Positions 1 through 19,417 of a stretch of DNA of 56,895 nucleotides are shown here, one piece after another. This DNA comes from a virus (Duplodnaviria > Caudoviricetes), in the IMG/VR virus record IMGVR_UViG_3300025400_000022, positions 1 through 56,895 of that record; one strand, 5' to 3'. The notes beneath the pieces were generated by a model, which saw only the letters and a list, made by a program, of their open reading frames with translations, made no database searches and had not been told where the DNA came from. The number at the start of each line of letters is the position of its first letter. Position 1 is the stretch's first letter. The translations under genes were made by a program, and so were the position numbers.

Positions 1-231
1 ATCTACGTTCTGATGGACGATGAACAAGTGGATAAAATGGTCGGCTACCAGTACGAACACGTCATCACACTGGACAGCGCCAGCGAGTACGAGATGCTTT
101 GCGCGGTTGAGGAATGGTTTGAGGAGTCTTGCAGTCTGCGCTTCGTTCAGTCTGTCAGGAGCGCACTAGAGGGTGAAGACCCTAACAAGGGTTTCACCGT
201 TCTGATTGAACAGGGTTTCGGGGAAGACTAG
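1..231 (+). CDS. Hypothetical acidic early protein (5' partial)
   Basis: Frame 1 is open from base 1 (IYVLMDDEQ...) to TAG at 229-231, followed by GC-rich hairpins. Confidence 0.7.
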   Translation: MYVLMDDEQVDKMVGYQYEHVITLDSASEYEMLCAVEEWFEESCSLRFVQSVRSALEGEDPNKGFTVLIEQGFGED

Positions 232-327
232 GGGAGTGGGGTGGCTATCACAGCACCCCCTCACTGATACGCCGAGGGGGTGGGGTCACTTGACCCCGCC
301 CCCTTGAGGTATCCCCACTCTCTTTTT
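232..327 (+). terminator. Compound hairpin / intrinsic terminator
   Basis: Long stem gatac..gagggggtggggtca / tgaccccgcccccttg..gtatc (266-313); gagtgggg (234-241) is also complementary to ccccactc (313-320); then tcttttt. Confidence 0.6.
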
Positions 328-389
328 CGCGTGTGTGCACCCGTACGCGAATCGCGTGCAGGAATCGCGTATGCGAATCGCGTGCACGA
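327..389. repeat. TCGCGT/ACGCGA block, copy 1
   Basis: TCGCGT-gtgtgcacccgt-ACGCGA-A-TCGCGT..ATCGCGT..ATCGCGT. Confidence 0.9.
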
Positions 390-427
390 GATGACAATGG
401 CAATTTTACAAATAAAGTTGGGGAAAA

Positions 428-456
428 ATTATACCATAACGTCGGCCACAAGTCAA
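428..456 (-). promoter_or_regulatory. Antisense sigma70/SigA-type promoter
   Basis: Minus strand TTGACT-17 bp-TATAAT with TG extension; points into the CGCG block. Confidence 0.85.
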
Positions 457-467
457 GTCAATTCTAC

Positions 468-482
468 AGATAATGCCTATCT
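468..482. promoter_or_regulatory. Palindromic site AGATA-N5-TATCT, copy 1
   Basis: agata-atgcc-tatct between divergent -35 boxes; recurs at 1058, 1782, 2516. Confidence 0.75.
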
Positions 483-503
483 CAAAAAAAGATTGAAACC
501 GGC

Positions 504-532
504 TTGACTTTCTTCCCTGCACCTGCCATAAT
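504..532 (+). promoter_or_regulatory. Sigma70/SigA-type promoter
   Basis: TTGACT-17 bp-CATAAT with TG extension; followed by hairpin gggg-aaaag-cccc and RBS aaaggag. Confidence 0.85.
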
Positions 533-569
533 GGATACGTCGGGGAAAAGCCCCAACAAAGGAGATGAG

Positions 570-1001
570 ATGACCTACACCTACGAAACGCCTAAGGGCG
601 GAGTGTTCGAGAGCAACTATGCCCTCACAAAAGAACGTAGCGCCGACATTTGGTTCTGCGAAGGCGGTGGCATTGTAAACGCAATTGGAGACTACTACTA
701 TGGCAACGGTCGGGTGACTATCTACTGCTTGGGGGAGATGCGCCTAAACTTGGCAGACGGAACAGTCTGGCGAAGTGCTTGGGACTTGCCTAGCAACATC
801 ACTAACGACGAAGAACTAATGAACGTGTGGAGCGCCCCCGAAAACGACGTGGTGAACAACTGTTGGATAGAACTGTTCGACACCAGCGAGGGACAAGACG
901 TTGAGAACGAAGAGACCTACATCATTTGCGGGGACATTTGGGAAGCAATAGACGAAGCCCACGCCTACCTAGTGGCCACCTATCCAGAAGTTGAAGGGTA
1001 G
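570..1001 (+). CDS. Hypothetical acidic early protein
   Basis: ATG 570 after AAAGGAG; the ORF-track start at 504 is the promoter -35 box. Confidence 0.8.
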   Translation: MTYTYETPKGGVFESNYALTKERSADIWFCEGGGIVNAIGDYYYGNGRVTIYCLGEMRLNLADGTVWRSAWDLPSNITNDEELMNVWSAPENDVVNNCWIELFDTSEGQDVENEETYIICGDIWEAIDEAHAYLVATYPEVEG

Positions 1002-1012
1002 GTGGTGCAGGG

Positions 1013-1034
1013 TTCGCGTATACACACACGCGAA
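1013..1034. repeat. TCGCGT/ACGCGA block, copy 2 (single unit)
   Basis: tTCGCGT-atacacac-ACGCGAa. Confidence 0.85.
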
Positions 1035-1057
1035 GAATCTCGAGGTATCTAGAAAAA

Positions 1058-1112
1058 AGATAGGGGGTATCTACGAAAGTGATTTGACTTTTTTCCCTGC
1101 ACCTGTCATAAT
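1058..1112 (+). promoter_or_regulatory. AGATA-N5-TATCT site plus sigma70-type promoter
   Basis: Palindrome 1058-1072; TTGACT 1084-1089, 17 bp, CATAAT 1107-1112; nearly identical to the promoter at 504. Confidence 0.85.
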
Positions 1113-1152
1113 GGATACATACCGAAAAGCGGTATAACGAAAAGGAGAAACA

Positions 1153-1611
1153 ATGACCACAACCACTTACCCTGCTAAGGGAGTAATCACCTCTAGTTGC
1201 ACCTGCTACTACTGCCCTAGTTGCGAGATGACTTTCACGGACGACACCTATCCCGAAAACTGCGACTGCGGGACACCCTGCACACCTGCCTATGAGTCTT
1301 GCTCCGGCGAGTGCTGGGACTTCGCAACCGAAGACTTTGCCTACAACGCTTTTACTCCGTGGTGCTTGGCGAACGAGACCGACGAGTTCGCTATCTATGG
1401 TCGGCGTATGGGTTGGACTAACGGTAGCGGACACACGGGACGACTGACCGCGTTCAGGGAATTGCTGAACAACCTGACCCTGAACGGGGACTTCATTCTT
1501 CGCTGGGAGTTGAGCGAAGACAACAAGACCCTGACCGTCATTCGCTCTAGCCACGACGAAATGGGTGCGATGTTTGAGGTAGTGCCGTGGAATGAGGGAG
1601 ACGACGAGTAG
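1153..1611 (+). CDS. Hypothetical protein with Cys-rich (possible Zn-binding) N-terminus
   Basis: RBS AAAGGAG; CTCYYCPSC...CDCGTPC...CSGEC. Confidence 0.8.
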   Translation: MTTTTYPAKGVITSSCTCYYCPSCEMTFTDDTYPENCDCGTPCTPAYESCSGECWDFATEDFAYNAFTPWCLANETDEFAIYGRRMGWTNGSGHTGRLTAFRELLNNLTLNGDFILRWELSEDNKTLTVIRSSHDEMGAMFEVVPWNEGDDE

Positions 1612-1615
1612 GAGT

Positions 1616-1638
1616 AGGGTGGGGGGCGACCCCCACCT
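1616..1638 (+). terminator. GC-rich hairpin after ORF
   Basis: ggtggggg-gcga-cccccacc. Confidence 0.55.
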
Positions 1639-1650
1639 GAAACACCCCCT

Positions 1651-1714
1651 TCGCGTATGCCCGCATACACGCGAATCGCGTATCGCGTACACATACACGC
1701 GAACACGCACGCGA
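1651..1714. repeat. TCGCGT/ACGCGA block, copy 3
   Basis: Three TCGCGT and three ACGCGA separated by alternating purine-pyrimidine spacers. Confidence 0.9.
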
Positions 1715-1741
1715 GGAGATTTTACAAATAAAGTTGGGGAG

Positions 1742-1770
1742 ATTTTAGCACACGGGGCCACAAAAGTCAA
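1742..1770 (-). promoter_or_regulatory. Antisense sigma70-type promoter
   Basis: Minus strand TTGACT-17 bp-TAAAAT with TG extension. Confidence 0.8.
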
Positions 1771-1780
1771 GCATCAAAAG

Positions 1781-1846
1781 GAGATAGCCCCTATCTCAAA
1801 AATAGTTGGAAAACGATTTGACTTTTGCCCCGACCTATGGCATACT
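1781..1846 (+). promoter_or_regulatory. GAGATAG-N3-CTATCTC site plus sigma70-type promoter
   Basis: Palindrome 1781-1797; TTGACT 1818-1823, 17 bp, CATACT 1841-1846. Confidence 0.85.
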
Positions 1847-1894
1847 AGTTAGGTCGAGGAAACGCCGAGACAAACTACCGAAAGGATTACAACA

Positions 1895-2335
1895 ATGGAA
1901 CACGTCACTTACGGCACTGAGGTTGCCTCCGAGTTCACGCCCACTACCACCGCCGAGTTGGCGTTGGAAAACCGTGAGCGTGCAGTTGGGGTCAAGGAGC
2001 GTGCCATCACCGCTAAGGAGAATGACCTCTCCGAGCGTGAAGCATACCTCTCAAATGTCAAGGGTCAGATTATTGAGTTGGCTAAGTCCCTGATGGGTGA
2101 TGACGTTATTGTCGTTCAGCGTGAAGACTTTGATACTTTGGTTGATTTGGTGGAGACGGCTATCTCTAACTCCGAGGATAGCAAGGCGGCTATTGAAGAT
2201 TTGCAGTCTGAAATCTATGACCTGAAGCGGAACGCCGACAGCGTTGAGAGTAGCGCCGAAGATGCAAGTAGCAACCTTGAGAGTTCGCTTGCGGACTTGG
2301 AGAACGCCCTAGACAACCTGAAGGGTCTCGCTTAG
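1895..2335 (+). CDS. Acidic coiled-coil protein
   Basis: RBS GAAAGGA; heptad-like E/D/L/A/S-rich sequence. Confidence 0.8.
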   Translation: MEHVTYGTEVASEFTPTTTAELALENRERAVGVKERAITAKENDLSEREAYLSNVKGQIIELAKSLMGDDVIVVQREDFDTLVDLVETAISNSEDSKAAIEDLQSEIYDLKRNADSVESSAEDASSNLESSLADLENALDNLKGLA

Positions 2336-2336
2336 G

Positions 2337-2384
2337 CAACGGGTAGGGGGTTGGGCGCAAGCCCGACCCCCGATAACCCCGTTG
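2337..2384 (+). terminator. Nested hairpin with GCAA tetraloop
   Basis: caacggg..gggggttgggc-gcaa-gcccgaccccc..cccgttg. Confidence 0.6.
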
Positions 2385-2392
2385 GGGGCATT

Positions 2393-2441
2393 TCGCGTAT
2401 GTAGGCACGCGATTCGCGTATCGCGTACGTATGCACGCGAA
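2393..2441. repeat. TCGCGT/ACGCGA block, copy 4
   Basis: TCGCGT-atgtaggc-ACGCGA-T-TCGCGT-A-TCGCGT-acgtatgc-ACGCGA. Confidence 0.9.
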
Positions 2442-2475
2442 GCGACCCGAGGATTTTTAGAAAACGTATGGGGAA

Positions 2476-2504
2476 ATTATACCATAGGCCACACCAAAAG
2501 TCAA
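2476..2504 (-). promoter_or_regulatory. Antisense sigma70-type promoter
   Basis: Minus strand TTGACT-17 bp-TATAAT with TG extension. Confidence 0.85.
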
Positions 2505-2515
2505 GTATCAAAGGC

Positions 2516-2580
2516 AGATAGTCCCTATCTAAAAAAAAGATGCGTTTTGACTTGACAGCGACGCCGAGACCTGTCATAAT
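2516..2580 (+). promoter_or_regulatory. AGATA-N5-TATCT site plus ardC promoter
   Basis: Palindrome 2516-2530; TTGACA 2552-2557, 17 bp, CATAAT 2575-2580. Confidence 0.85.
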
Positions 2581-2625
2581 GGATACGTTCCGAAATGCGG
2601 AGCAACTAATCAAAGGAGCAAGCAA

Positions 2626-3516
2626 ATGAGCAAGACCGCTTACGAGGTAGTCGCCCAGACTATCATCAAGCAACTGGAAAACAACGTCGCACCGTGGCGC
2701 AAGGAATGGATAGCCTACGGATACAAGCCTAAGTCAATGAGCAGTGGCAAGACCTACAAGGGTATGAACTTTATGCTCTTGATGTTTGAGGCTATGGACA
2801 AGGGCTACGAAAGCCCGTGGTGGGGAACGTTCAAGCAGATTACCGAGCGTGGAGGCGTGGTCACGAAGGGCGAGAGGGGCACTCCCGTAGTCCTGTGGAA
2901 GCAGTTTGAGACCGAAAACGCTGACGGGGACAAGAAGAAGGCGGTGGTGATGCGCTACTTCACCGTGTTCAACGCCCAGCAAGCGACGTGGGAAGACGGG
3001 AAAGCGCCAGCCTACGATAAGCCCGTTGCCCGTGATGCCGTTGCAGTCATTGAGGGGGCGCAGAGCATTATGGACAACTACTTCGCCCGTGACAATGCAC
3101 CGAGCCTAGCCTTTGGTGGAAACCGAGCCTACTACTCACCTAGTCGAGACGGTATCCAACTTCCCCAGCAGTCCAACTTCGTGAGCGATAGTTCGTTCTA
3201 TGCAACGGCGTTTCACGAGATGGGTCACTCAACCGGTCACAAGTCACGCCTAAACCGTGACGGCGTCGTGGAAAACCACTACTTCGGTAGCGAACTCTAC
3301 AGCGAAGAGGAATTGGTGGCAGAGTTCACGAGTGCGTTTTTGTGCAGTGAAACCGGTGTTTTGCCCGAGACACTGGACAACAGCACCGCTTACATCAAGT
3401 CTTGGCTGAAGGTTCTGAAGAACGACCCGAAGATGCTAGTAAAGGCAGTGGGTCGGGCGCAGAAGGCTACGAACTTCATCACCGGCGCAGAGACGGAGAC
3501 GGTGGAAGCCGAGTAG
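2626..3516 (+). CDS. ardC: ArdC-family antirestriction protein (ssDNA-binding N-domain plus zincin-like domain)
   Basis: PWRKEW, Y.G.N..LL, WGTFKQ...GG.V.KGE.G, FTVFN.QQ, AYYSPS.D.I.LP, HEMGHSTGH.SRLNR, Y..EELVAE, YI.SW.K.LK.D. Confidence 0.92.
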   Translation: MSKTAYEVVAQTIIKQLENNVAPWRKEWIAYGYKPKSMSSGKTYKGMNFMLLMFEAMDKGYESPWWGTFKQITERGGVVTKGERGTPVVLWKQFETENADGDKKKAVVMRYFTVFNAQQATWEDGKAPAYDKPVARDAVAVIEGAQSIMDNYFARDNAPSLAFGGNRAYYSPSRDGIQLPQQSNFVSDSSFYATAFHEMGHSTGHKSRLNRDGVVENHYFGSELYSEEELVAEFTSAFLCSETGVLPETLDNSTAYIKSWLKVLKNDPKMLVKAVGRAQKATNFITGAETETVEAE

Positions 3517-3567
3517 TGGCAGGGGGTCGGGGCGAACGTGTGTTCGCTCCGGCTCCGCCATTTTTTT
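3517..3567 (+). terminator. Intrinsic terminator
   Basis: Long GC stem around gaac-gtgt-gttc followed by T7. Confidence 0.75.
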
Positions 3568-3622
3568 CGCGTGCGTGTATACGCGAATCGCGTAGGCGCG
3601 GGTACGCGAATCGCGTACGCGA
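3567..3622. repeat. TCGCGT/ACGCGA block, copy 5
   Basis: Three TCGCGT..ACGCGA units joined by single A. Confidence 0.9.
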
Positions 3623-3698
3623 GAGGATTTCTAAAGAAACTACGGGCGAAAGTAGCCAGTTTTTGAGAAAAAGATGGGGAAAAATTATCGCACGACTA

Positions 3699-3727
3699 AT
3701 TATAGCGTATGCGTGAGTGAAAGTCAA
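3699..3727 (-). promoter_or_regulatory. Antisense sigma70-type promoter
   Basis: Minus strand TTGACT-17 bp-TATAAT. Confidence 0.85.
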
Positions 3728-3786
3728 GAATAATTACGTGTCATACTGTAAGCCCCTCAGACGGGTTATTTATGGGAAGGTATCAG

Positions 3787-4077
3787 ATGACACAGAACTT
3801 GTATTTCGTGACGGCAGACGGGCTTATAGGCATCGCTGACGGGCTTTTGCTTGTGCGCAGTGACGAGGTGACTTGGACAGAGTTGCAGGAAGCCGTAGAG
3901 AAGCCTAATCCGAAGTCGCAGGTTATGCGACTGCTACAGCGTGACAAGGGTATTCGCCCAGACGCAGTTGCACTAACTAAGGCCACAGCGTTCACCACAC
4001 CAGAGGCGGCGCAGGAGTTCCGAGAAGACCTTGAAGAAAAAGGTTGGACTTGGCTTGACAAGGACACAAACCCCTGA
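3787..4077 (+). CDS. Hypothetical protein
   Basis: ATG after GGAAGG; upstream extended -10 TGTCATACT at 3739-3747. Confidence 0.7.
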   Translation: MTQNLYFVTADGLIGIADGLLLVRSDEVTWTELQEAVEKPNPKSQVMRLLQRDKGIRPDAVALTKATAFTTPEAAQEFREDLEEKGWTWLDKDTNP

Positions 4078-4083
4078 TACAAT
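4055..4083 (+). promoter_or_regulatory. Sigma70-type promoter
   Basis: TTGACA-17 bp-TACAAT; followed by AAAAG-loop hairpin 4088-4110. Confidence 0.85.
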
Positions 4084-4128
4084 GGTTGAGTACCGGAAAA
4101 GCCGGTGCTTTTATCAGAAGGGATTACC

Positions 4129-4515
4129 GTGGGAGACCGTGGAAACATCAAGTTAGTTAGTGAATACGGACAGCCGATTTACTTTTACACTCATTGGACT
4201 GCTTACCGACTGCCCGAAATTGTGGCGCAGGGGCTGGACAAGGGGCGTGACCGGTGGGGCGATGAGGACTACCTCAATCGTATCATCTTTCAGACGCTCC
4301 TCGGAGGCGACGAGAGCAACCTTTCTTACGGCATCAGTACCCGTGAGGCTGGCGACGCTTGGCGCTTGGTAGAAGTAGACCACGTAAAGGAAGAAGTTTC
4401 TATCTATGAGCGTGTCTACAGCGAAGACTTTGCGGACAGTCACTGGCGACCCGTCTATGAGCCTAAGTCGTTTCACGAGTTTGTCCTTGACTTTCTCCCC
4501 GTGGTAGCGGTATGA
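4129..4515 (+). CDS. Hypothetical phage protein (MGDRGNI..FYTHW)
   Basis: GTG after GAAGGGA, in frame with ORF-track 4105..4515. Confidence 0.8.
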   Translation: MGDRGNIKLVSEYGQPIYFYTHWTAYRLPEIVAQGLDKGRDRWGDEDYLNRIIFQTLLGGDESNLSYGISTREAGDAWRLVEVDHVKEEVSIYERVYSEDFADSHWRPVYEPKSFHEFVLDFLPVVAV

Positions 4516-4784
4516 TGAAGTTCGAGGATTGGTGGAACCAGTATCAGCCCCTAGATAATCATTTCCAATCTAGGGCATACTACTTTGTCAAGATGTTCGA
4601 GACCTACGGCGAGGAACTGGAGTTTGTTCAGGGTCAGCCCGTCGAGATGGTGTGGACGGAACTGGACGACGGAACCATTGTGAACGGCTACCACATTGTG
4701 AACAGAATGGGCTACTACATCACAGTCAAGCCGTGGAGCGAGGAAACTGTGGTCGAGGACGAAGAGTTGGAAGAATTGGACTAG
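4512..4784 (+). CDS. Hypothetical acidic protein
   Basis: ATGA overlap with upstream stop; acidic C-terminal tail. Confidence 0.8.
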   Translation: MMKFEDWWNQYQPLDNHFQSRAYYFVKMFETYGEELEFVQGQPVEMVWTELDDGTIVNGYHIVNRMGYYITVKPWSEETVVEDEELEELD

Positions 4785-4816
4785 GAGGTTGCCCCCGAAG
4801 TTTGGGGGCAATCTCC
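4784..4816 (+). terminator. GC-rich hairpin
   Basis: ggaggttgcccccgaa-g-tttgggggcaatctcc. Confidence 0.65.
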
Positions 4817-4821
4817 CCCTA

Positions 4822-4884
4822 TCGCGTGTGCGCATACGCGAAATCGCGTATCGCGTGGGCATGTACGCGAATCGCGTACGCGAA
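4822..4884. repeat. TCGCGT/ACGCGA block, copy 6
   Basis: Four TCGCGT and three ACGCGA. Confidence 0.9.
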
Positions 4885-4915
4885 GAGTTTTTCAAAAAAA
4901 AATGGGGAAAATGAT

Positions 4916-4944
4916 TTGACATTGACGTCGGCGTGTGTCATACT
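4916..4944 (+). promoter_or_regulatory. Sigma70-type promoter
   Basis: TTGACA-17 bp-CATACT with TG extension; AAACG-loop hairpin 4951-4969. Confidence 0.85.
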
Positions 4945-4990
4945 GTTTGGGTCGAGAAAACGTCTCGGCAATTTACCGAAAGGATTACCA

Positions 4991-5197
4991 ATGGCGACAG
5001 CCACTAAGAAAGTTGTAAGCACCGAGGTTCAGGATACTGAAGATGACAGCCCTACGTCGTACAGCGTGACGGTAATGGTTGAGTACCGGTTTGACGTAGA
5101 TGCCGACGGCGAAGCGGAAGCGGAAGCCGAGGGCTGGCGCTACGAAGACTACAAGGGTTTTGCATCAGTATACAGCATTGACGTGGAGGAGAACTAA
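4991..5197 (+). CDS. Small very acidic protein (MATATKK...)
   Basis: ATG after GAAAGGA; likely true start inside ORF-track 4652..5197. Confidence 0.8.
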   Translation: MATATKKVVSTEVQDTEDDSPTSYSVTVMVEYRFDVDADGEAEAEAEGWRYEDYKGFASVYSIDVEEN

Positions 5198-5343
5198 TGA
5201 CCAACTACACCACTATTGAGCAGTTAGTAGAGGCGGTGCAGAAAGCACTCCCGAATTGCGACATTGACCTTGACAACGAGGGTCAGGTCATCATTTACAC
5301 CAACTATTCATTCATTGACGGCGTTCTAAAGGAGAGCGAATAA
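5197..5343 (+). CDS. Small hypothetical protein (48 aa)
   Basis: TAATG coupling at both ends; RBS GGAGGAG. Confidence 0.7.
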   Translation: MTNYTTIEQLVEAVQKALPNCDIDLDNEGQVIIYTNYSFIDGVLKESE

Positions 5344-5513
5344 TGGCAAAAATGTATGTAGGCTTTGACGGCAACTATGGTAGCGCCGAGGATTACGACC
5401 TCTTTATCTTCGACACCGAGGATTTTAGCGAGGCGCAACTGCACCTTTTTGATGAAGACCCCGCCGAGTTTTACCTACGGGCGACGAGCGACGACTGGGA
5501 GGGCTTAGAGTGA
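5343..5513 (+). CDS. Small acidic hypothetical protein (56 aa)
   Basis: TAATG coupling; RBS AAAGGAG. Confidence 0.7.
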   Translation: MAKMYVGFDGNYGSAEDYDLFIFDTEDFSEAQLHLFDEDPAEFYLRATSDDWEGLE

Positions 5514-5674
5514 GGAGCGCAACCGAGGCGTCGAGCGCCCTTATCCTATACGCCGAGCGCAAGTTTCACGGCGAGGAGACGGAAGCCAACGAACTGCTGT
5601 ATTCTTTGCTAGTAGAGATGCTACAGTGGAACGTAGCAGTCACGGACAAAGTTTTCGATTTCTTTGACCACTGA
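5510..5674 (+). CDS. Small hypothetical protein (54 aa)
   Basis: GTGA overlap; RBS GGGAGG. Confidence 0.6.
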   Translation: MRSATEASSALILYAERKFHGEETEANELLYSLLVEMLQWNVAVTDKVFDFFDH

Positions 5675-5675
5675 C

Positions 5676-5704
5676 TTGACAAAGTAAAAAACCCCTGTTA
5701 TAAT
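5676..5704 (+). promoter_or_regulatory. Consensus sigma70-type promoter
   Basis: TTGACA-17 bp-TATAAT with TG extension; AAAAG-loop hairpin 5711-5729. Confidence 0.9.
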
Positions 5705-5746
5705 AGATGAGTACCGGAAAAGCCGGTGCAGAGACAAAGGAGCATA

Positions 5747-6226
5747 ATGCACGTATTACATTTTATCGCAGTAGAGGCTGACAACGCCGAAGACGCAATC
5801 TCTCAAGTAGACATTGCTTTGACGCACGATGACAACCCCGTTTTTCCGTGGAGCGACTGGGCAGAAATCGGGGGGCGCTGGGAGGACGAGGGCGAGGTTC
5901 ACTGCTACGCAGACGACCCCACAAAGTTTGAGGACTTTTTGGAGCGTGCCCGTCTCAACCGAGTGAATGAAATCAAGTTTCTGTTGAGCAACATTGACAC
6001 CGAGGCAATCATTGAAGAAGTGCGCAACTTTGATGGCCGTGATGCCGGACGCAGTCTTGATTTTTACCATCTCCGTCAGGCTATTGCCATTGCCGAGGGC
6101 AACGGAAAGCACGATGCCTACTTCTACGACCTGAAAGAATGGTGCGAAGACTTCAAGTATCTCCGTGAGCGCATGGAAACAGACCCCACTCGTCAATTCT
6201 TAGTCTTGGTAGATTTTCACCACTAG
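5747..6226 (+). CDS. Hypothetical phage protein (W..IGGRW ... VDFH)
   Basis: ATG after AAAGGAG. Confidence 0.8.
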   Translation: MHVLHFIAVEADNAEDAISQVDIALTHDDNPVFPWSDWAEIGGRWEDEGEVHCYADDPTKFEDFLERARLNRVNEIKFLLSNIDTEAIIEEVRNFDGRDAGRSLDFYHLRQAIAIAEGNGKHDAYFYDLKEWCEDFKYLRERMETDPTRQFLVLVDFHH

Positions 6227-6229
6227 GAC

Positions 6230-6258
6230 TTGACAAAGCAAAAAACCCGTGGTACAAT
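6230..6258 (+). promoter_or_regulatory. Sigma70-type promoter
   Basis: TTGACA-17 bp-TACAAT with TG extension; AAAAG-loop hairpin 6262-6284. Confidence 0.88.
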
Positions 6259-6303
6259 GGTTCATCACCGAAAAGCGGTGGTGACAGACAGAAAGGATAC
6301 AAA

Positions 6304-6522
6304 ATGGGAGAGCACCACGTTTACTTCGTAAGCATTACTTGCGACCACATGGTTCTAAACACTGTTGTCTACTACGACAGAACGCCCGACGACGACCGGC
6401 TGGAAGCGGACATTGAAGACGTTCTGCTGGAACTTGCATCACGAAAGATTTTTCAAGAATACGGTTTCAACCCCTACAACTGGGCTATTGACACCGACTA
6501 CACCTACGGAGGAGAACAATAA
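6304..6522 (+). CDS. Hypothetical protein
   Basis: RBS AGAAAGGA. Confidence 0.75.
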   Translation: MGEHHVYFVSITCDHMVLNTVVYYDRTPDDDRLEADIEDVLLELASRKIFQEYGFNPYNWAIDTDYTYGGEQ

Positions 6523-6689
6523 TGACTGTAAACTATGACACCGACGGGACGCCATACATGGAGGTCTCTTACACCTACACCGTAAGCGTTATCGCTGAAA
6601 ACGCTGATGAGGCGCTGATGTACGCTGACGGGCTTTTCAACGACCAGACGGGCGCAAACCCCAATGACTTTCACGTGGAGGTGCTGTAA
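6522..6689 (+). CDS. Small acidic hypothetical protein (55 aa)
   Basis: TAATG coupling at both ends; RBS GGAGGAG. Confidence 0.7.
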   Translation: MTVNYDTDGTPYMEVSYTYTVSVIAENADEALMYADGLFNDQTGANPNDFHVEVL

Positions 6690-6913
6690 TGAGTACCTAC
6701 ACGCACTATTTTGTGGTGGGCTACCACAAAGACCGTGGGTTCTTTTGCGACACCGACGTCTTGGAAGCACATTTTCCTGACGGCTGTATCTGGGATGAAG
6801 ACCTACAAGAGTATCTTCGTATCCCTGACCAGGGATTTAGGGAATACGACGCCGACCTTTATTCGGCGCTACTGCATTACATCCGCAAACTAAACGAAGA
6901 AGGAGGCTACTAA
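6689..6913 (+). CDS. Hypothetical protein
   Basis: TAATG coupling; RBS GGAGG. Confidence 0.75.
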   Translation: MSTYTHYFVVGYHKDRGFFCDTDVLEAHFPDGCIWDEDLQEYLRIPDQGFREYDADLYSALLHYIRKLNEEGGY

Positions 6914-7110
6914 TGAGTAAGTGGATTATCAAGGACTGGGCGGGCAACCGACTGTGGACAGAGTTCGGGAGCGACGACCCGAACCTATCGTTCAACAGTT
7001 TTGAGGAAGCGTGGGACTTTATCTACGTCGCAAAGCCCGAACCAGAAGAAGACAGCCCAGACTGGGTTGATGGCTGGTACGACGACTACTTCGTGGAGGA
7101 GTCAGAATGA
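6913..7110 (+). CDS. Small acidic, Trp-rich hypothetical protein
   Basis: TAATG coupling; RBS AGGAGG. Confidence 0.75.
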   Translation: MSKWIIKDWAGNRLWTEFGSDDPNLSFNSFEEAWDFIYVAKPEPEEDSPDWVDGWYDDYFVEESE

Positions 7111-7166
7111 TGAGCGACGGCTCAGAGTTTGTAGGTGTTTGTGACCTGTGTGACGAATACTTCTAA

Positions 7167-7278
7167 GTAGTGCCCTAGTCTCGGCTAGGTAGTCTATCCA
7201 AAACCCCCTGTAGTGCCCCTGTATTGCCCTGTAGTGCCCGTATTATCCAAACCGGATAGACTGCCTAGCCAGTGCCCC
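7167..7278 (+). repeat. 17-bp inverted repeat enclosing tandem (GT)AGTGCCC repeats
   Basis: ggctaggtagtctatcc 7183-7199 / ggatagactgcctagcc 7254-7270; AGTGCCC at 7169, 7212, 7233, 7271 and ATTGCCC at 7223. Confidence 0.8.
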
Positions 7279-7299
7279 AAAATGTCTCAAATCAAAGCC

Positions 7300-7357
7300 T
7301 CGCGTGTGTATACGTATCGCGTACGCGAATCGCGTATATATATCGCGTATACGCGAA
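7300..7357. repeat. TCGCGT/ACGCGA block, copy 7
   Basis: Four TCGCGT and two ACGCGA with (TA)n and (GT)n spacers. Confidence 0.9.
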
Positions 7358-7387
7358 GGGCCGGTTCTTTGGAAAAATGTCTGGGGT

Positions 7388-7470
7388 CTGGCAGTTTTTC
7401 AAAAAAATGTGGGGAAAAATTATTCTGTGTGGCCCCTGGCAGTTTTTGACCCAAATGTGGGGAAAAATTA
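7388..7470. repeat. Tandem duplicated TTTTT..TGTGGGGAAAAATTA box
   Basis: ctggcagttttt-caaaa-aaatgtggggaaaaatta and ctggcagttttt-gaccc-aaatgtggggaaaaatta. Confidence 0.8.
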
Positions 7471-7533
7471 CGCTTTTGGGGCCGGCCTTATTACTTGTGG
7501 TTTCGGCCACATTTGGTACGTTATCATACTAAT

Positions 7534-7575
7534 AGTATACCATAAATTGACATTCATGTCAAATATTGGTACGAT
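7534..7575. promoter_or_regulatory. Overlapping divergent promoters around TTGACA-TTCA-TGTCAA
   Basis: Minus: TTGACA (7562-7557), 17 bp, TATACT (7539-7534). Plus: TTGACA (7547-7552), 17 bp, TACGAT (7570-7575). Both have a TG extension. Confidence 0.75.
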
Positions 7576-7676
7576 AACTGGGGGTTATGCGGGTATGGGT
7601 ACCCTATACGCGCGGGAATGTGCGTTTAGACGGGCGTATTGACATGGTTTTTTATGGTTTTTTATGGTTCCCATCG

Positions 7677-7955
7677 CTACTCATTCCACTTGCCTTTATT
7701 ATCAAGGTCCCGCTCCGTCAGGCTATTTCCCCATGCGTTCAGAAACGTATCAATCTGAGCCTCTAGGCGTTCAATATCCTTCGTTCCATCAACTTCAGTG
7801 TTCAACTGCTCACCTGTCTCTGGGTTTATTCCACTCTTAGTCATTGTCTCGTTGTATAAGTCTACTAAGTAGTTCTGTAGGTCTTCTATTGAGTTGCCTG
7901 AATAAGCCCCGGTTGCTTCCTCTTCTTGGTTGCCCCCCTCAAAAAAATTACTCAT
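7677..7955 (-). CDS. Hypothetical protein
   Basis: Last ORF of a tightly packed minus-strand operon. Confidence 0.7.
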   Translation of the reverse strand: MSNFFEGGNQEEEATGAYSGNSIEDLQNYLVDLYNETMTKSGINPETGEQLNTEVDGTKDIERLEAQIDTFLNAWGNSLTERDLDNKGKWNE

Positions 7956-8187
7956 CAGGATAACCCCACAAAAGGTTCACGATGGCTTCTTCTTCTTCGG
8001 TCATCTCAGGGTAATTGGGGGCAATAATAGCCACGGCTTGCTCAATGCGTTCTTCTAGGCTGGCATCTGATGGCTTTGGCTTGCCTTCGAGATACTCAAC
8101 ACGTCGTACCGTCTCTACTAATACTTCAGAGAGGCTTAGAAGGCGTTGTGCTAGGTCTAGGTCAAACTCGCTGGGCTGGTCACTCAC
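7948..8187 (-). CDS. Hypothetical protein
   Basis: Packed ORF with RBS GAAGGA. Confidence 0.7.
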   Translation of the reverse strand: MSDQPSEFDLDLAQRLLSLSEVLVETVRRVEYLEGKPKPSDASLEERIEQAVAIIAPNYPEMTEEEEAIVNLLWGYPDE

Positions 8188-8188
8188 G

Positions 8189-8644
8189 TTAGTTTGCTTC
8201 CTTCCAGTAGTTGCGCCAACGCTCAGGGTAGGGCTTCCAGTCTTCCTTTGGTTGCCCCTCTAATTCTGCAATGCGTTGCTTTAGCACCATAACGTCTGAA
8301 AGCAGTTGCTCGATGTTGGTTTCAGCGTATGCCAAGTCTTCGGCTGTTTGGATACCAAACTGACGTACTTCTTCCAGTTGGCGCTCGAGCCCGTCTTCCT
8401 TTACAAAAGGCTTGAGAGGTTTGTCGGTGACCTGTGTGCCGATTGTGTGAGTTGTAAAGTCATAACGGGGGCGAGTATCCTGCTCAAAGTTGCTGTGGAT
8501 TTGCTCGTCAATGTGCTGTAGGCCACGACGATAGCCCATCCAATACATCTTGTCTTCGGTGGTTTTGGCAATCTCGTAATACGCTAACGCCGTTTGGTGC
8601 GCCCGATTCAAAATCTCAGTGACCCTGCTGTGAAGGACTGTCAT
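8189..8644 (-). CDS. Hypothetical protein with C-terminal coiled coil
   Basis: ATGA overlap with upstream gene; RBS GAGGA. Confidence 0.7.
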   Translation of the reverse strand: MTVLHSRVTEILNRAHQTALAYYEIAKTTEDKMYWMGYRRGLQHIDEQIHSNFEQDTRPRYDFTTHTIGTQVTDKPLKPFVKEDGLERQLEEVRQFGIQTAEDLAYAETNIEQLLSDVMVLKQRIAELEGQPKEDWKPYPERWRNYWKEAN

Positions 8645-8844
8645 TGGTTGTCCTCTTCTTCCCACACTGGGTCAATGTGGCCGAGGAAGTCAATACGAAC
8701 AGTTTTCTTGCCCTCGTGAAACGTCCGGGCCTCGGCGCTGGGCTCTTTTGTGACAAGTCGAACAACGTTAATACGCTGTTGCAACTCATACAACTTGGTC
8801 TCCAACATGTCAATACGATACTTCAGTTCTTTCTTACTTGCCAT
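8641..8844 (-). CDS. Hypothetical protein
   Basis: Start MASKKEL after GAGGA. Confidence 0.7.
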   Translation of the reverse strand: MASKKELKYRIDMLETKLYELQQRINVVRLVTKEPSAEARTFHEGKKTVRIDFLGHIDPVWEEEDNQ

Positions 8845-9097
8845 AGTGGCGCATCCTCTCACTCTCTTGTTTGTCTAACTCCCGATTTATTGCCCACACC
8901 AGTTGGATAAAGGTGCAAGCGGTAATCAGGAATACCAATGATACCACAATTACTTTCCAATTGCAAATCGCAAACCATGTTGCGAGGCCGGCGAACCAGC
9001 CAATTGAAAGTTTAGTTGCAGTTCTGAAACTCCTAATTTTTGACCAAAATTTTTTAATCAATAACGGGGGCTTATTAATAGTTTTGTTTGTATTCAT
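8834..9097 (-). CDS. Small membrane protein
   Basis: Two hydrophobic segments. Confidence 0.65.
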   Translation of the reverse strand: MNTNKTINKPPLLIKKFWSKIRSFRTATKLSIGWFAGLATWFAICNWKVIVVSLVFLITACTFIQLVWAINRELDKQESERMRHYGK

Positions 9098-9100
9098 CTA

Positions 9101-9334
9101 TTAGTTGTCGCCACGCTTCTTGAACGGCGTTAGGCCGCTCGTAAAGGCGTAGAGAAGGGCGTAGATGAACGTGGCCTGCCAGAAGCCCATAGGTCGGAAC
9201 TGGGGCGCCCAGCGATGAATGTCGCCCGCCAAAAGCATCGTCACCAGTCCGCCCACCAATGCGGCGAGAGGCCACATCAGAAAACTGAAGATAGCAAACG
9301 TCAGGTTGCTAGTAGTCTTGAACTTTACCTGCAT
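9101..9334 (-). CDS. Small membrane protein
   Basis: Two hydrophobic segments, GFWQA motif, TAATG coupling. Confidence 0.7.
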   Translation of the reverse strand: MQVKFKTTSNLTFAIFSFLMWPLAALVGGLVTMLLAGDIHRWAPQFRPMGFWQATFIYALLYAFTSGLTPFKKRGDN

Positions 9335-9603
9335 TAGTTATCCTTGTCGAGCACCGCTACGATGCCGGCAACTGGGACCTGAACGTACTTGACGCCGGCA
9401 ATCTCAACTGCGTATGCCAAACCGTGCTTGAAGACAACACTGTCGCCCTCACTGATGCCCTCAACGTCGGGGCCAACTGAGATAACCTCAGCAATGTCGG
9501 GCAGTGGTACTGCGCCCTGTGGAATTACGAGACCCGTCTCTGTGGTCTTTTCTTTGTGCTCCATGCGAAGAATCACATTGTCGCTAGTGGCCTTGAAAGC
9601 CAT
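9334..9603 (-). CDS. groES: GroES/Cpn10 co-chaperonin
   Basis: DNVIL..E.E.TT.TGLVIP..A..EVISVGP.V.G...GD.V.F....E..G.KY..V....IVAVL. Confidence 0.9.
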   Translation of the reverse strand: MAFKATSDNVILRMEHKEKTTETGLVIPQGAVPLPDIAEVISVGPDVEGISEGDSVVFKHGLAYAVEIAGVKYVQVPVAGIVAVLDKDN

Positions 9604-15089: not shown

Positions 15090-15590
15090 TTAAAAACACT
15101 CTTTGTCTGCTGACCACTCGGGCAAAAATCCCCCGTTGGCTTTATACACTGCTACTGCTACTGCGTCTTGCTCAGGACCACTCGCATTCTGAGCAAGTGC
15201 CGCATACTTTAAGCCACCGTAGTGAGCCCAAATGTAGTCGGCAAATTGGTAAAGCCCTCCATCACCAGAGTAAACATTTACGCTTGTCGGGTGATTGGTT
15301 GATTCGTGAAACCGGATGCACGCAAAGGCTGCTTGGGCTGAGAGCGGAATCGAGGCAATGGGGCTTGACGCTGAAGGCCAGTAGGCCGTTGAGTCCGTTG
15401 CCCTTGTGTCCCATTCGTTTCCTGCACTAAGTTTTGCTGCTGGTTTTGAGGCTGGCTCTGGGAACTTGATTTCAAGAATAGCCTCTGTTGTTTTAATGTT
15501 TGCTTTGTCATTTGCATCAATTGTACCATGGTTAGCACTATGATTGCAAATCAATGTGGCAATAAAAATTGCCGCTATTACGTTTTTCAT
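15090..15590 (-). CDS. Secreted Rpf-like / lysozyme-fold transglycosylase
   Basis: Signal-peptide-like N-terminus; CIRFHES..N...GGLYQF...W..YGG..A..AS..EQ..VA. Confidence 0.8.
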   Translation of the reverse strand: MKNVIAAIFIATLICNHSANHGTIDANDKANIKTTEAILEIKFPEPASKPAAKLSAGNEWDTRATDSTAYWPSASSPIASIPLSAQAAFACIRFHESTNHPTSVNVYSGDGGLYQFADYIWAHYGGLKYAALAQNASGPEQDAVAVAVYKANGGFLPEWSADKECF

Positions 15591-18397: not shown

Positions 18398-19417
18398 ATG
18401 GCAAAAAAGACAGATACTGCCTCTATTTTAGACGCAGTTATGGCACAAATTGACAAAGACTTTGGTGAAGGGTCTATTGTACGACTGAGTAACGACAAGG
18501 TTTCACCCGTAGAAGTTATTTCTACTGGCGTGCTTCCGTTGGACATGGCGCTGGGCGCTGGCGGTCTTCCGCTGGGCCGAATCGTTGAGTTCTACGGGCC
18601 GCCCTCATCAGGCAAATCAACGCTGGCGATGCACTCAATTGCAGAAGCGCAGAAGCAGGGCAAAGTGTGTGCGTACATTGACGCTGAGCACGCTATTGAC
18701 CCTGTGTATGCCAAGGCTCTTGGTGTGAACTTAGACGAATTGCTTTTGTCTCAGCCCAGCACTGCCGAGGAAGGCTTGGAGATTACTATTCGCCTTGCAG
18801 AGACCGGAATGGTTTCCGTAATTGTGGTGGACTCCGTTGCCGCTTTGACCCCCCGCGCCGAACTTGAGGGCGAAATGGGCGATGCCAACGTCGGCCTTCA
18901 GGCTCGCCTTATGGGTAAGGCGTTGCGCAAGTTGGCCGGTCCCGCGTTTGACAACAACACACTGGTTATCTTTATCAATCAGTTGCGAGAGTCAATTGGC
19001 AAGATGTACGGGCCGTCTGAATACACCCCAGGCGGCAAGGCGTTGCCTTACTACGCATCAGTTCGCTTGGACATTCGACGAATCAAGACCATCACTAAGG
19101 GCGACGAAGCAACGGCTAACCGCACAAAGGTCAAGGTTGTCAAGAACAAGATTGCCGCACCGTATCGTGTTGCAGAGTTTGACCTTGAGTACGGCGTTGG
19201 CGTCCCAAAGGCTAACGCGTTGATTGACTGCGCCACCGATGTAGGCGTGTTGCAGTCTCGTGGCGCTTGGATTTACTACGATGGCGAGCAGTTTGCAAAC
19301 GGGCGTGCAAAGGCTAAGGCAAAGATTGAGTCCGACCCAGCGTTGTACGAAGAGTTGTACCAGCGTGTATTAGCACTAATCAACGTCACTAAGGCACTGG
19401 ACGAAAACGATGAGTGA
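18398..19417 (+). CDS. recA: RecA recombinase
   Basis: ISTG..LD.ALG.GGLP.GRIVE.YGP.SSGKST, IDAEHA.DP.YA, VVDSVAALTPRAE.EG.MGD, FINQLRE, TPGGKAL..YASVRLDIRR. Confidence 0.98.
   Translation: MAKKTDTASILDAVMAQIDKDFGEGSIVRLSNDKVSPVEVISTGVLPLDMALGAGGLPLGRIVEFYGPPSSGKSTLAMHSIAEAQKQGKVCAYIDAEHAIDPVYAKALGVNLDELLLSQPSTAEEGLEITIRLAETGMVSVIVVDSVAALTPRAELEGEMGDANVGLQARLMGKALRKLAGPAFDNNTLVIFINQLRESIGKMYGPSEYTPGGKALPYYASVRLDIRRIKTITKGDEATANRTKVKVVKNKIAAPYRVAEFDLEYGVGVPKANALIDCATDVGVLQSRGAWIYYDGEQFANGRAKAKAKIESDPALYEELYQRVLALINVTKALDENDE

Follow-up and report, generated by a model that had tools for sequence, protein, structure and literature searches.

The window analysed here is a whole virus record (IMGVR_UViG_3300025400_000022), a single 56,895-bp contig with a GC content of 51%. 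Small early genes occupy its + strand from position 1 to ~7170, and from 7677 on the genes lie on the minus strand. Each long intergenic region of the early block holds a repeat of one composite cassette, ~150-330 bp in length. Read along the + strand, the cassette runs from the GC-rich hairpin of the upstream gene through a block of CGCG palindromes and a T-run/A-run box with GGGGAAA(AATTAT) to a backward promoter (P-), a second palindrome (O2), a forward early promoter (P+), a hairpin in the 5' untranslated region, a ribosome-binding site, and the next gene. The subject of this analysis is the family of backward promoters, which point away from the gene that the cassette serves.

A sigma-70/SigA-type promoter was defined by a TTGACA-like -35 and a TATAAT-like -10 hexamer that stand 17 +/- 1 bp apart, and five minus-strand sites are of this type. 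A preliminary description of this DNA had named the same five, and a consensus scan recovered all of them, each with 10-11 of 12 consensus bases and 17-bp spacing (Table 1). Promoter-like sites are frequent in this part of the genome, with 23 in positions 1-9000 compared with 6.8 +/- 2.9 in 50 shuffles, and over the whole contig the strong sites cluster in 1-7700. Four minus-strand matches of at least 11/12 were seen where ~0.05 are expected (calculated for one strand of 8 kb), although the P- copies are paralogous and do not count as independent draws in such chance statistics. The backward promoters are also nearer to consensus than the forward ones, whose consensus in the window is TTGACW-17-CATAAT with a TG. 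When the four copies of 232-3727 are aligned in register (family D10), the hexamers are conserved, and the spacer is always 17 nt long with a different sequence in each copy.

Every P- points across the T-run/GGGG box (family D2) and the CGCG block towards the hairpin of the upstream gene, as the preliminary description had proposed. Its statement that no gene follows also held. We collected open reading frames (ORFs) of at least 20 amino acids that start no more than 260 nt behind 18 such promoters of the window and its relatives; only 1 of 55 is preceded by even a 4-nt Shine-Dalgarno (SD)-like motif, and a strong AAGGAG-type site stands at every + strand early gene. A coding role for P- was rejected, as no credible SD-preceded ORF lies behind any of them. 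The fourth copy sits 10 nt past its box, which keeps a GATAAT-like end of its own. The junction promoter would fire across two boxes and a CGCG block, and its -35 interlocks with that of a + strand TTGACA-17-TACGAT promoter (7547-7575).

Table 1. Promoters, cassette parts, and related features of the window (L numbers denote loci of relatives; TG, TG before the -10)
Feature	Position	Strand	Details
P- copy 1	428-456	-	TTGACT (456-451)-17-TATAAT (433-428), TG, 11/12; identical copy in L146
P- copy 2	1742-1770	-	TTGACT-17-TAAAAT, TG, 10/12; matching unit at L146 4635 and L151 437
P- copy 3	2476-2504	-	TTGACT-17-TATAAT, TG, 11/12; in the cassette upstream of the ArdC-like gene; L146 5879 identical
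P- copy 4	3699-3727	-	TTGACT-17-TATAAT, no TG, 11/12
Junction promoter	7534-7562	-	TTGACA-17-TATACT, TG, 11/12
Hairpin region and T-run closing the upstream early gene (13-231)	232-326	+	P- RNA would be antisense to the hairpin
CGCG palindrome block	326-386	.	TCGCGT/ACGCGA half-sites; contains the 13-mer ACGCGAATCGCGT
Further CGCG blocks	1013-1034, 1650-1712, 2392-2442, 3565-3621, 4820-4880, 7301-7357		families D3, D5, D7, D8, D11
Box B, T-run/A-run inverted repeat then GGGGAAAAATTAT	403-432	.	initially transcribed region of P- (predicted); families D2, D4, D13
Further Box B copies	1719-1747, 2454-2476, 3659-3688, 4887-4915, 7394-7423, 7442-7471		
O2 palindrome AGATAG-N3-CTATCT, 15 bp	468-482	.	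between the divergent promoters; 4 matches vs 0.70 expected
Further O2 copies	1058-1072, 1782-1796, 2516-2530		
P+ early promoter of gene 570-1001	504-532	+	TTGACT-17-CATAAT
Sister P+ sites	1084-1112, 1818-1846, 2552-2580, 4916-4944	+	
ArdC-like anti-restriction/zincin gene	2626-3516	+	Pfam PF08401 9.2e-33, PF18818 3.9e-37
DnaA-box-like nonamer clusters in relatives	L146 ~2600-2660, L148 ~3680-3720, L152 ~3700-3760, L001 380-425 and 3540-3570, L154 ~1810-1840		

P- and P+ form two complete back-to-back promoters, with their -35 boxes 37-47 bp apart around the palindrome. In 3 of 3 intergenic regions (IG1, IG3, and IG4), 19 bp separate the O2 centre from the outer edge of the P- -35. The P+ -35 stands 29 bp from that centre in all three but 19 bp from it in IG2, where P- is missing, so that P+ is shifted by one helical turn where P- is present. 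The O2-to-P+ distances of the relatives fall into matching classes of 17-19 or 29-30 bp. The CGCG blocks are just as ordered. The 13-mer ACGCGA-W-TCGCGT, a palindrome except for its central base, occurs in every block and has 15 matches compared with 0.06 expected. Half-sites pair up as 6-N1-6 and 6-N8-6 palindromes, with fillers in which purines and pyrimidines alternate, in the window and in L001, L002, and L154, so that such arrays are shared by three phage clades that differ in GC content and promoter type. Inverted repeats are nested within the blocks as a whole, which also contain long alternating purine-pyrimidine runs. These arrays are probably either operators for some protein or cruciform/Z-prone DNA. 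A 14-nt CGCG pattern matched viral contigs only singly and at a chance-like level, and that scan was set aside. Box B was also considered as an ECF (extracytoplasmic function)-type or other + strand promoter and was rejected on inspection by eye, since the spacing is inconsistent. The T-run/A-run box may resemble a CodY box, and the CGCG 13-mer a ClgR site; nothing here relies on either resemblance.

We searched viral and metagenome contigs with the ArdC-like protein and obtained relatives that fall into three groups. The close clade (51-55% GC, ArdC 82-97% identical) comprises L146, L147, L148/L149, L150/L151, and L152, or about four lineages besides the window, and a P- of matching build is found in every one of its loci (six in L146, one in L147, four each in L148, L149, and L152, and two each in L150 and L151). 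Removal of duplicates left 13 distinct copies of the box type, two of the IG5 type, and two of the junction type. The spacing is 17-18 bp in all 15 distinct copies, and a TG precedes the -10 in 12 of the 13 box-type copies, every one of which continues with TTCCCCA and then the T-run/A-run box. The orthologue of P- copy 1 (L152 4480-4452) has a diverged spacer, and that of copy 4 (L150 2387-2359) has identical hexamers with 5 of 17 spacer positions different; the junction promoter has homologues at L152 11052-11024 and at L002 4235-4207, the latter a 12/12 match. Over five orthologous pairs, 4 of 60 hexamer positions differ compared with 19 of 87 spacer positions (Fisher p = 0.019, differences counted by eye), and the hexamer changes seen are to consensus-compatible bases.

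The two promoter families resemble each other. Both carry TGAC just upstream of the -35 and a TRTG-type -16 motif, both stand at a fixed 17-19 bp from the O2 centre, and the spacer of the P- at L148 5879 is nearly identical to that of the P+ at window 4916, which points the other way and lies beside a matching GGGGAAA box. On account of these shared motifs, the common distance to O2, and the near-identical spacer, the best interpretation of P- is that the phage's own early-promoter unit was copied in inverted orientation.

The preliminary description had considered that these promoters might produce a family of paralogous, self-complementary RNAs of ~100-200 nt ending at bidirectional hairpins, and this part of it was not supported: we found no shared fold, no covariation, no strand bias, and no minus-strand terminator. 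In an alignment of 12 distinct predicted transcripts, each running from its presumed start through the CGCG block, only TAAAA and the 13-mer palindrome are invariant, the latter in 12 of 12 cassettes. The covariation check that had been suggested, which we ran with RNAalifold, returned five invariant pairs, a covariation term of 0, and no compensatory pair. The predicted P- RNAs do fold, at -20 to -60 kcal/mol over 79-133 nt. The CGCG blocks show no strand bias in this respect, with 7 of 18 more stable on the minus strand (Wilcoxon p = 0.95), nor do the full transcripts, with 9 of 18 (p = 0.29), some of the 18 sequences being near-duplicates. This neutrality suggests that the palindromes are DNA-level elements (operators or cruciform/Z-prone tracts) rather than RNA helices selected on the minus strand. 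A search against Rfam, likewise suggested beforehand, gave no match at gathering scores over the whole window, and at E <= 1 over 1-8000 it gave one chance-level match, BjrC68, to a + strand hairpin (E = 0.3, 18.9 bits against a gathering score of 39). As a separate observation, most close-clade copies have a CTCCT/CCTC pyrimidine stretch (an SD-like GGAG on the + strand) 15-30 nt past the presumed start, between the A-run and the CGCG block, which was not seen in the clades without P-.

The hairpins that were thought to end the P- RNA have no T-run on the minus strand, and between P- and the stop codon of the upstream gene 0 of 4 intergenic regions contain a terminator-like site on that strand. 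On the + strand, the CGCG helix closes shortly before a T-run (a gap of 0-3 nt in 7 of 16 cases and of 4-8 nt in 7 of 16, with overlap in 2 of 16), and the block may, though not firmly, be a second + strand terminator. Since no minus-strand terminator was found, a P- transcript would run on antisense into the upstream gene, and genes 13-231, 1153-1611, and 1895-2335 and the ArdC-like gene would each be bracketed by a forward and a backward promoter. For the ArdC-like gene, these are the P+ at 2552-2580 and the P- of the next cassette at 3727-3699.

We judge the chances about even that the P- sites are genuine sigma-70/SigA promoters without a gene, maintained by selection, and that the RNA made there extends in antisense into the upstream early gene and works in cis. 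Host primary-sigma polymerase would fire at P-, and the RNA, probably starting at the A after CCCC, would cross the operator-like CGCG palindrome array and then the hairpin of the upstream gene. Having no terminator of its own, it would go on antisense into the 3' end of that gene. Its effect in cis could come from convergent interference or collision, or from base-pairing between the RNA and the 3' part of the upstream mRNA. Expression of the early genes would thereby be limited, insulated, timed, or shut off, in an arrangement like that of lambda pO/oop but present once per cassette. Of the options in the preliminary description, its second, read-through antisense or collision transcription, fits this anatomy best, and the near-consensus family of gene-less promoters that it recognized is borne out and conserved in the close clade. 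We are doubtful of a more specific version, in which P+ and the stronger P- around a shared O2 constitute an antisense off-switch or timer for each gene, a flip from P+ to P- at O2 silences the entire early set together, and the CGCG arrays are a roadblock or structural element that sets the point where polymerases meet.

The cassettes themselves recombine. Those of window 456 (cf. L152 4480) and window 2504 (cf. L146 5879) adjoin different genes in relatives, and contigs from four freshwater DNA runs contain structural variants at cassettes. In a contig of run X20, a 580-nt deletion (526 to 1107) fuses two near-identical P+ units and removes gene 570-1001 (shorter side 199 nt), giving the arrangement found in L146. 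A contig of run X13 has a 564-letter insert at 2379-2385 in IG4 (side 255), and one of run X9 has a 58-nt deletion in the IG1 hairpin, a region that varies in L146 as well. From these assembled sequences, we interpret the variants as cassette-mediated gene gain and loss in natural populations. A strand-changing joint, as expected if P- were part of an invertible promoter switch with both orientations in the population, was not present among the joints listed for the four runs, whose contigs drop rare variants.

Several observations weigh against selected antisense promoters. The 24 runs listed as containing the sequence are all DNA-type freshwater metagenomes, and firing, start site, and RNA length are accordingly predicted rather than observed. 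The predicted discriminator of P- is pyrimidine-rich, and the +1 base is uncertain. In the window, IG2 and IG6 have no P-, and only ~60% of the O2-bearing cassettes of the close clade have one. The comparison of hexamers with spacers covers only five pairs, a small sample, and, because the cassettes recombine, similarity of the hexamers could partly reflect recent spread or gene conversion instead of selection. The two other groups of relatives add to this list. No backward promoter was found in the tandem intergenic regions of a 43% GC clade (L001, L002, L153, L156-160, L164, and L165; ArdC ~70%), in which only the junction promoter has a homologue (L002). No P- was found in the third clade either (L154, L155, and L161-163), where four of five loci have no promoter of at least 10/12 and L162 has one 10/12 match on the minus strand. 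Both of these clades keep CGCG blocks, so the cassette evidently works without P-.

What the two clades do share with the window is the rest of the cassette. The 43% GC clade has tandem early cassettes with a recognisable T-run box and long alternating purine-pyrimidine tracts, and a CGCG palindrome lies 22 bp upstream of most of its P+ -35 boxes. In the third clade, CGCG palindromes are very dense (41 TCGCGT in 12.6 kb of L154) and alternate with + strand units of TTGACA plus a T-run box. The occurrence of CGCG blocks in all three clades and of P- in one indicates that the CGCG array predates the other parts of the cassette and that P- was added in the window's clade only. The third-clade units, each a CGCG palindrome with TTGACA and a TTTTCTGTAGAAAGTT-like box, stand upstream of weaker TTTGCA-18-TAAAGT promoters; judging by their sequence, they may be tandem weak promoters or polymerase-docking sites. 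In addition, one cassette per relative contains two or three perfect or near-perfect DnaA-box-like nonamers by the CGCG block, some arranged as a hairpin (Table 1), which could be an origin or a DnaA-titrating site.

Other explanations of the backward promoters make different use of the same anatomy. In one, which we consider unlikely, the RNA is irrelevant: divergent polymerases from P- and P+ would build negative supercoiling that opens P+ on freshly injected DNA and converts the CGCG blocks to cruciform or Z forms. The strict back-to-back geometry, with O2 at 19 bp from P- and at 17-19 or 29-30 bp from P+, is consistent with such coupling, as are the nested inverted repeats and alternating runs of the CGCG blocks, their strand neutrality, and, in the 43% GC clade, the placing of a palindrome behind P+. 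However, the sequence of the CGCG half-sites does not vary, as would be expected of a protein site more than of a purely structural element; relatives that have no P- keep the tracts, which therefore do not need it; and a helper promoter would not have to be nearer to consensus than the promoter that it helps. It seems improbable that P- produces abundant structured RNAs (carrying an AU hairpin at the 5' end, then a CUCCU-like pyrimidine stretch and CGCG hairpins) that serve in trans as decoys or sponges for a host protein, a nuclease, or ribosome-binding sites. Near-consensus promoters do suggest high output, the predicted folds are strong, and the CTCCT/CCTC stretch goes with the presence of P-, but the 12 copies have neither a common secondary structure nor a compensatory change, their stability is not biased to one strand, no terminator sets a 3' end, Rfam gives no gathering match, and an invariant 13-bp palindrome is typical of a DNA operator.

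The close homology of the P- and P+ units, down to the spacer, also raises the prospect that P- is a neutral by-product, that is, a recent, harmless, and functionless outcome of recombination that shuffles promoter units and inverts some of them. The different neighbours of cassettes in relatives, the contig indels at cassettes, and the two related clades without P- all point in this direction. We nevertheless regard it as a poor prospect. Hexamers change less than spacers, and only to bases that fit the consensus; no distinct copy departs from the 19-bp distance to O2 or from the 17-18 bp spacing; and P- is found at orthologous sites in about four lineages with ArdC proteins of only 82-97% identity. 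Moreover, a promoter this close to consensus and convergent with the upstream gene would probably do that gene some harm. Transcription acts at the lambda ori and at the T4 and T7 origins. That the backward transcripts activate or prime a replication origin here is nonetheless very improbable in our judgement. One P- cassette per relative locus has two or three DnaA-box-like nonamers in the transcribed stretch (L146 2760, L148 3844, and L152 3869), and passages of one report describe an effect of lambda pO on replication (PMC3985674), but the window has no cluster of DnaA boxes (11 single matches compared with 9.5 expected), most P- cassettes have no such boxes, and an origin would not be expected in four to six copies per genome.

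Additional elements of the early region accompany the cassettes. Conserved GC stem-loops with A-rich loops lie just past + strand early -10 boxes at 539-556, 1119-1135, 4089-4108, 5710-5729, and 6264-6283 (family D6), where they probably stabilise the 5' ends of the early mRNAs. The + strand early block ends at 7170-7290 with a large inverted repeat around three ~13-nt CCCTGTAGTGCCC-like copies, a possible terminator, packaging site, or origin. At the convergent junction, the interlocked -35 boxes of the opposed promoters at 7534-7575 form a palindrome, and at 7639-7668 a TTGACA-18-TATGGT promoter overlies a GGTTTTTTAT direct repeat; none of these promoters has an obvious gene.

Elsewhere, the window encodes a tape-measure-like protein, a protein with a weak SU10-type capsid match, and DnaB, YqaJ, ERF, and SSB. 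It also has genes for a GroES-like co-chaperonin at 9334-9603 (-), for a protein with an Rpf-like transglycosylase domain at 15090-15590 (-), and for a full RecA at 18398-19417 (+). Pfam and PHROGs searches with 36 proteins revealed no DNA-binding domain in the early region and no repressor candidate among the early proteins. A phage collection gave no match to positions 1-8000 (megablast), to a 534-aa protein (tblastn), or to the capsid protein. The DnaB is nearest to actinophage helicases, at ~30% identity, which together with the Rpf-like transglycosylase gives only weak hints of an actinobacterial host; a scan of genome contigs for ArdC in search of the host yielded only relatives at 36-38% identity.

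To our knowledge, the shut-off of early genes in phages that have neither their own RNA polymerase nor a known sigma inhibitor is poorly understood beyond a few model phages. The window's clade offers a conserved design that can be read from sequence, with multi-part cassettes, gene-less convergent promoters, two kinds of palindrome, and shuffling at the population level. If the backward promoters are indeed antisense switches for individual genes, they would extend a single-locus mechanism such as lambda oop to a genome-wide early-gene programme. The shuffling of cassettes in the style of the PeSL (promoter-early stem-loop) elements is evidently not confined to T4-type phages, and the compact, strong, symmetric divergent promoter pairs could serve as parts.

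The closest precedent for P- is lambda pO, whose product, oop, is a short, terminated RNA. As described in passages of two reports, convergent pO activity reduces pR-driven transcription (PMC3985674), and oop antisense RNA mediates RNase III-dependent hydrolysis of cII-O mRNA (PMC5869508). The likeness lies in a phage promoter without a protein gene that converges with an early transcript, which it here overlaps at the 3' end. Lambda has one copy, whereas the phages described here have four to six per genome, one per cassette; they also differ from lambda in having no minus-strand terminator that we could find and no sequence similarity, and the effect in their case is predicted.

The cassette as a whole recalls the PeSL cassettes of T4-type phages, in which, according to the portions of two reports that treat them, recombination between copies gives insertions, deletions, and replacements (PMC2839356, PMC4122927). 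Those portions describe a small composite cassette with a strong sigma-70-like early promoter and a stem-loop, repeated among small non-essential early genes, and here too indels fall exactly at cassettes and the flanking genes differ among relatives. A PeSL as described there consists of one promoter and one stem-loop, whereas the present cassette is larger and includes a CGCG array, a T-run/GGGG box, O2, and, in one clade, P-. The window phage is also unrelated to T4, as its tape-measure protein and the hint of an SU10-like capsid indicate.

For the CGCG array, a parallel is found in the stoperators of cluster A mycobacteriophages, where binding terminates transcription elongation in the account given in part of PMC9283540. 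Both systems have many copies of a short repressor-type site, which here is a 13-bp CGCG palindrome in the path of forward read-through and of the backward transcript. The same account describes stoperators as asymmetric and monomer-bound (PMC9283540). The CGCG sites are instead palindromic and clustered only in early intergenic regions, with no repressor candidate found among the early proteins.

Bidirectional bacterial promoters share one symmetric -10 region, which polymerase binds in either orientation. Sections of two reports on such pseudo-symmetrical promoters describe divergent transcription from a compact symmetric region (PMC12825309, PMC10268837), which is the feature that the P-/P+ pairs have in common with them. 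In the window, by contrast, the pairs consist of two complete back-to-back promoters, and only the junction pair at 7534-7575 interlocks. Overall, these comparisons place the system as a variant of two known kinds, gene-less antisense promoters and composite early regulatory cassettes.

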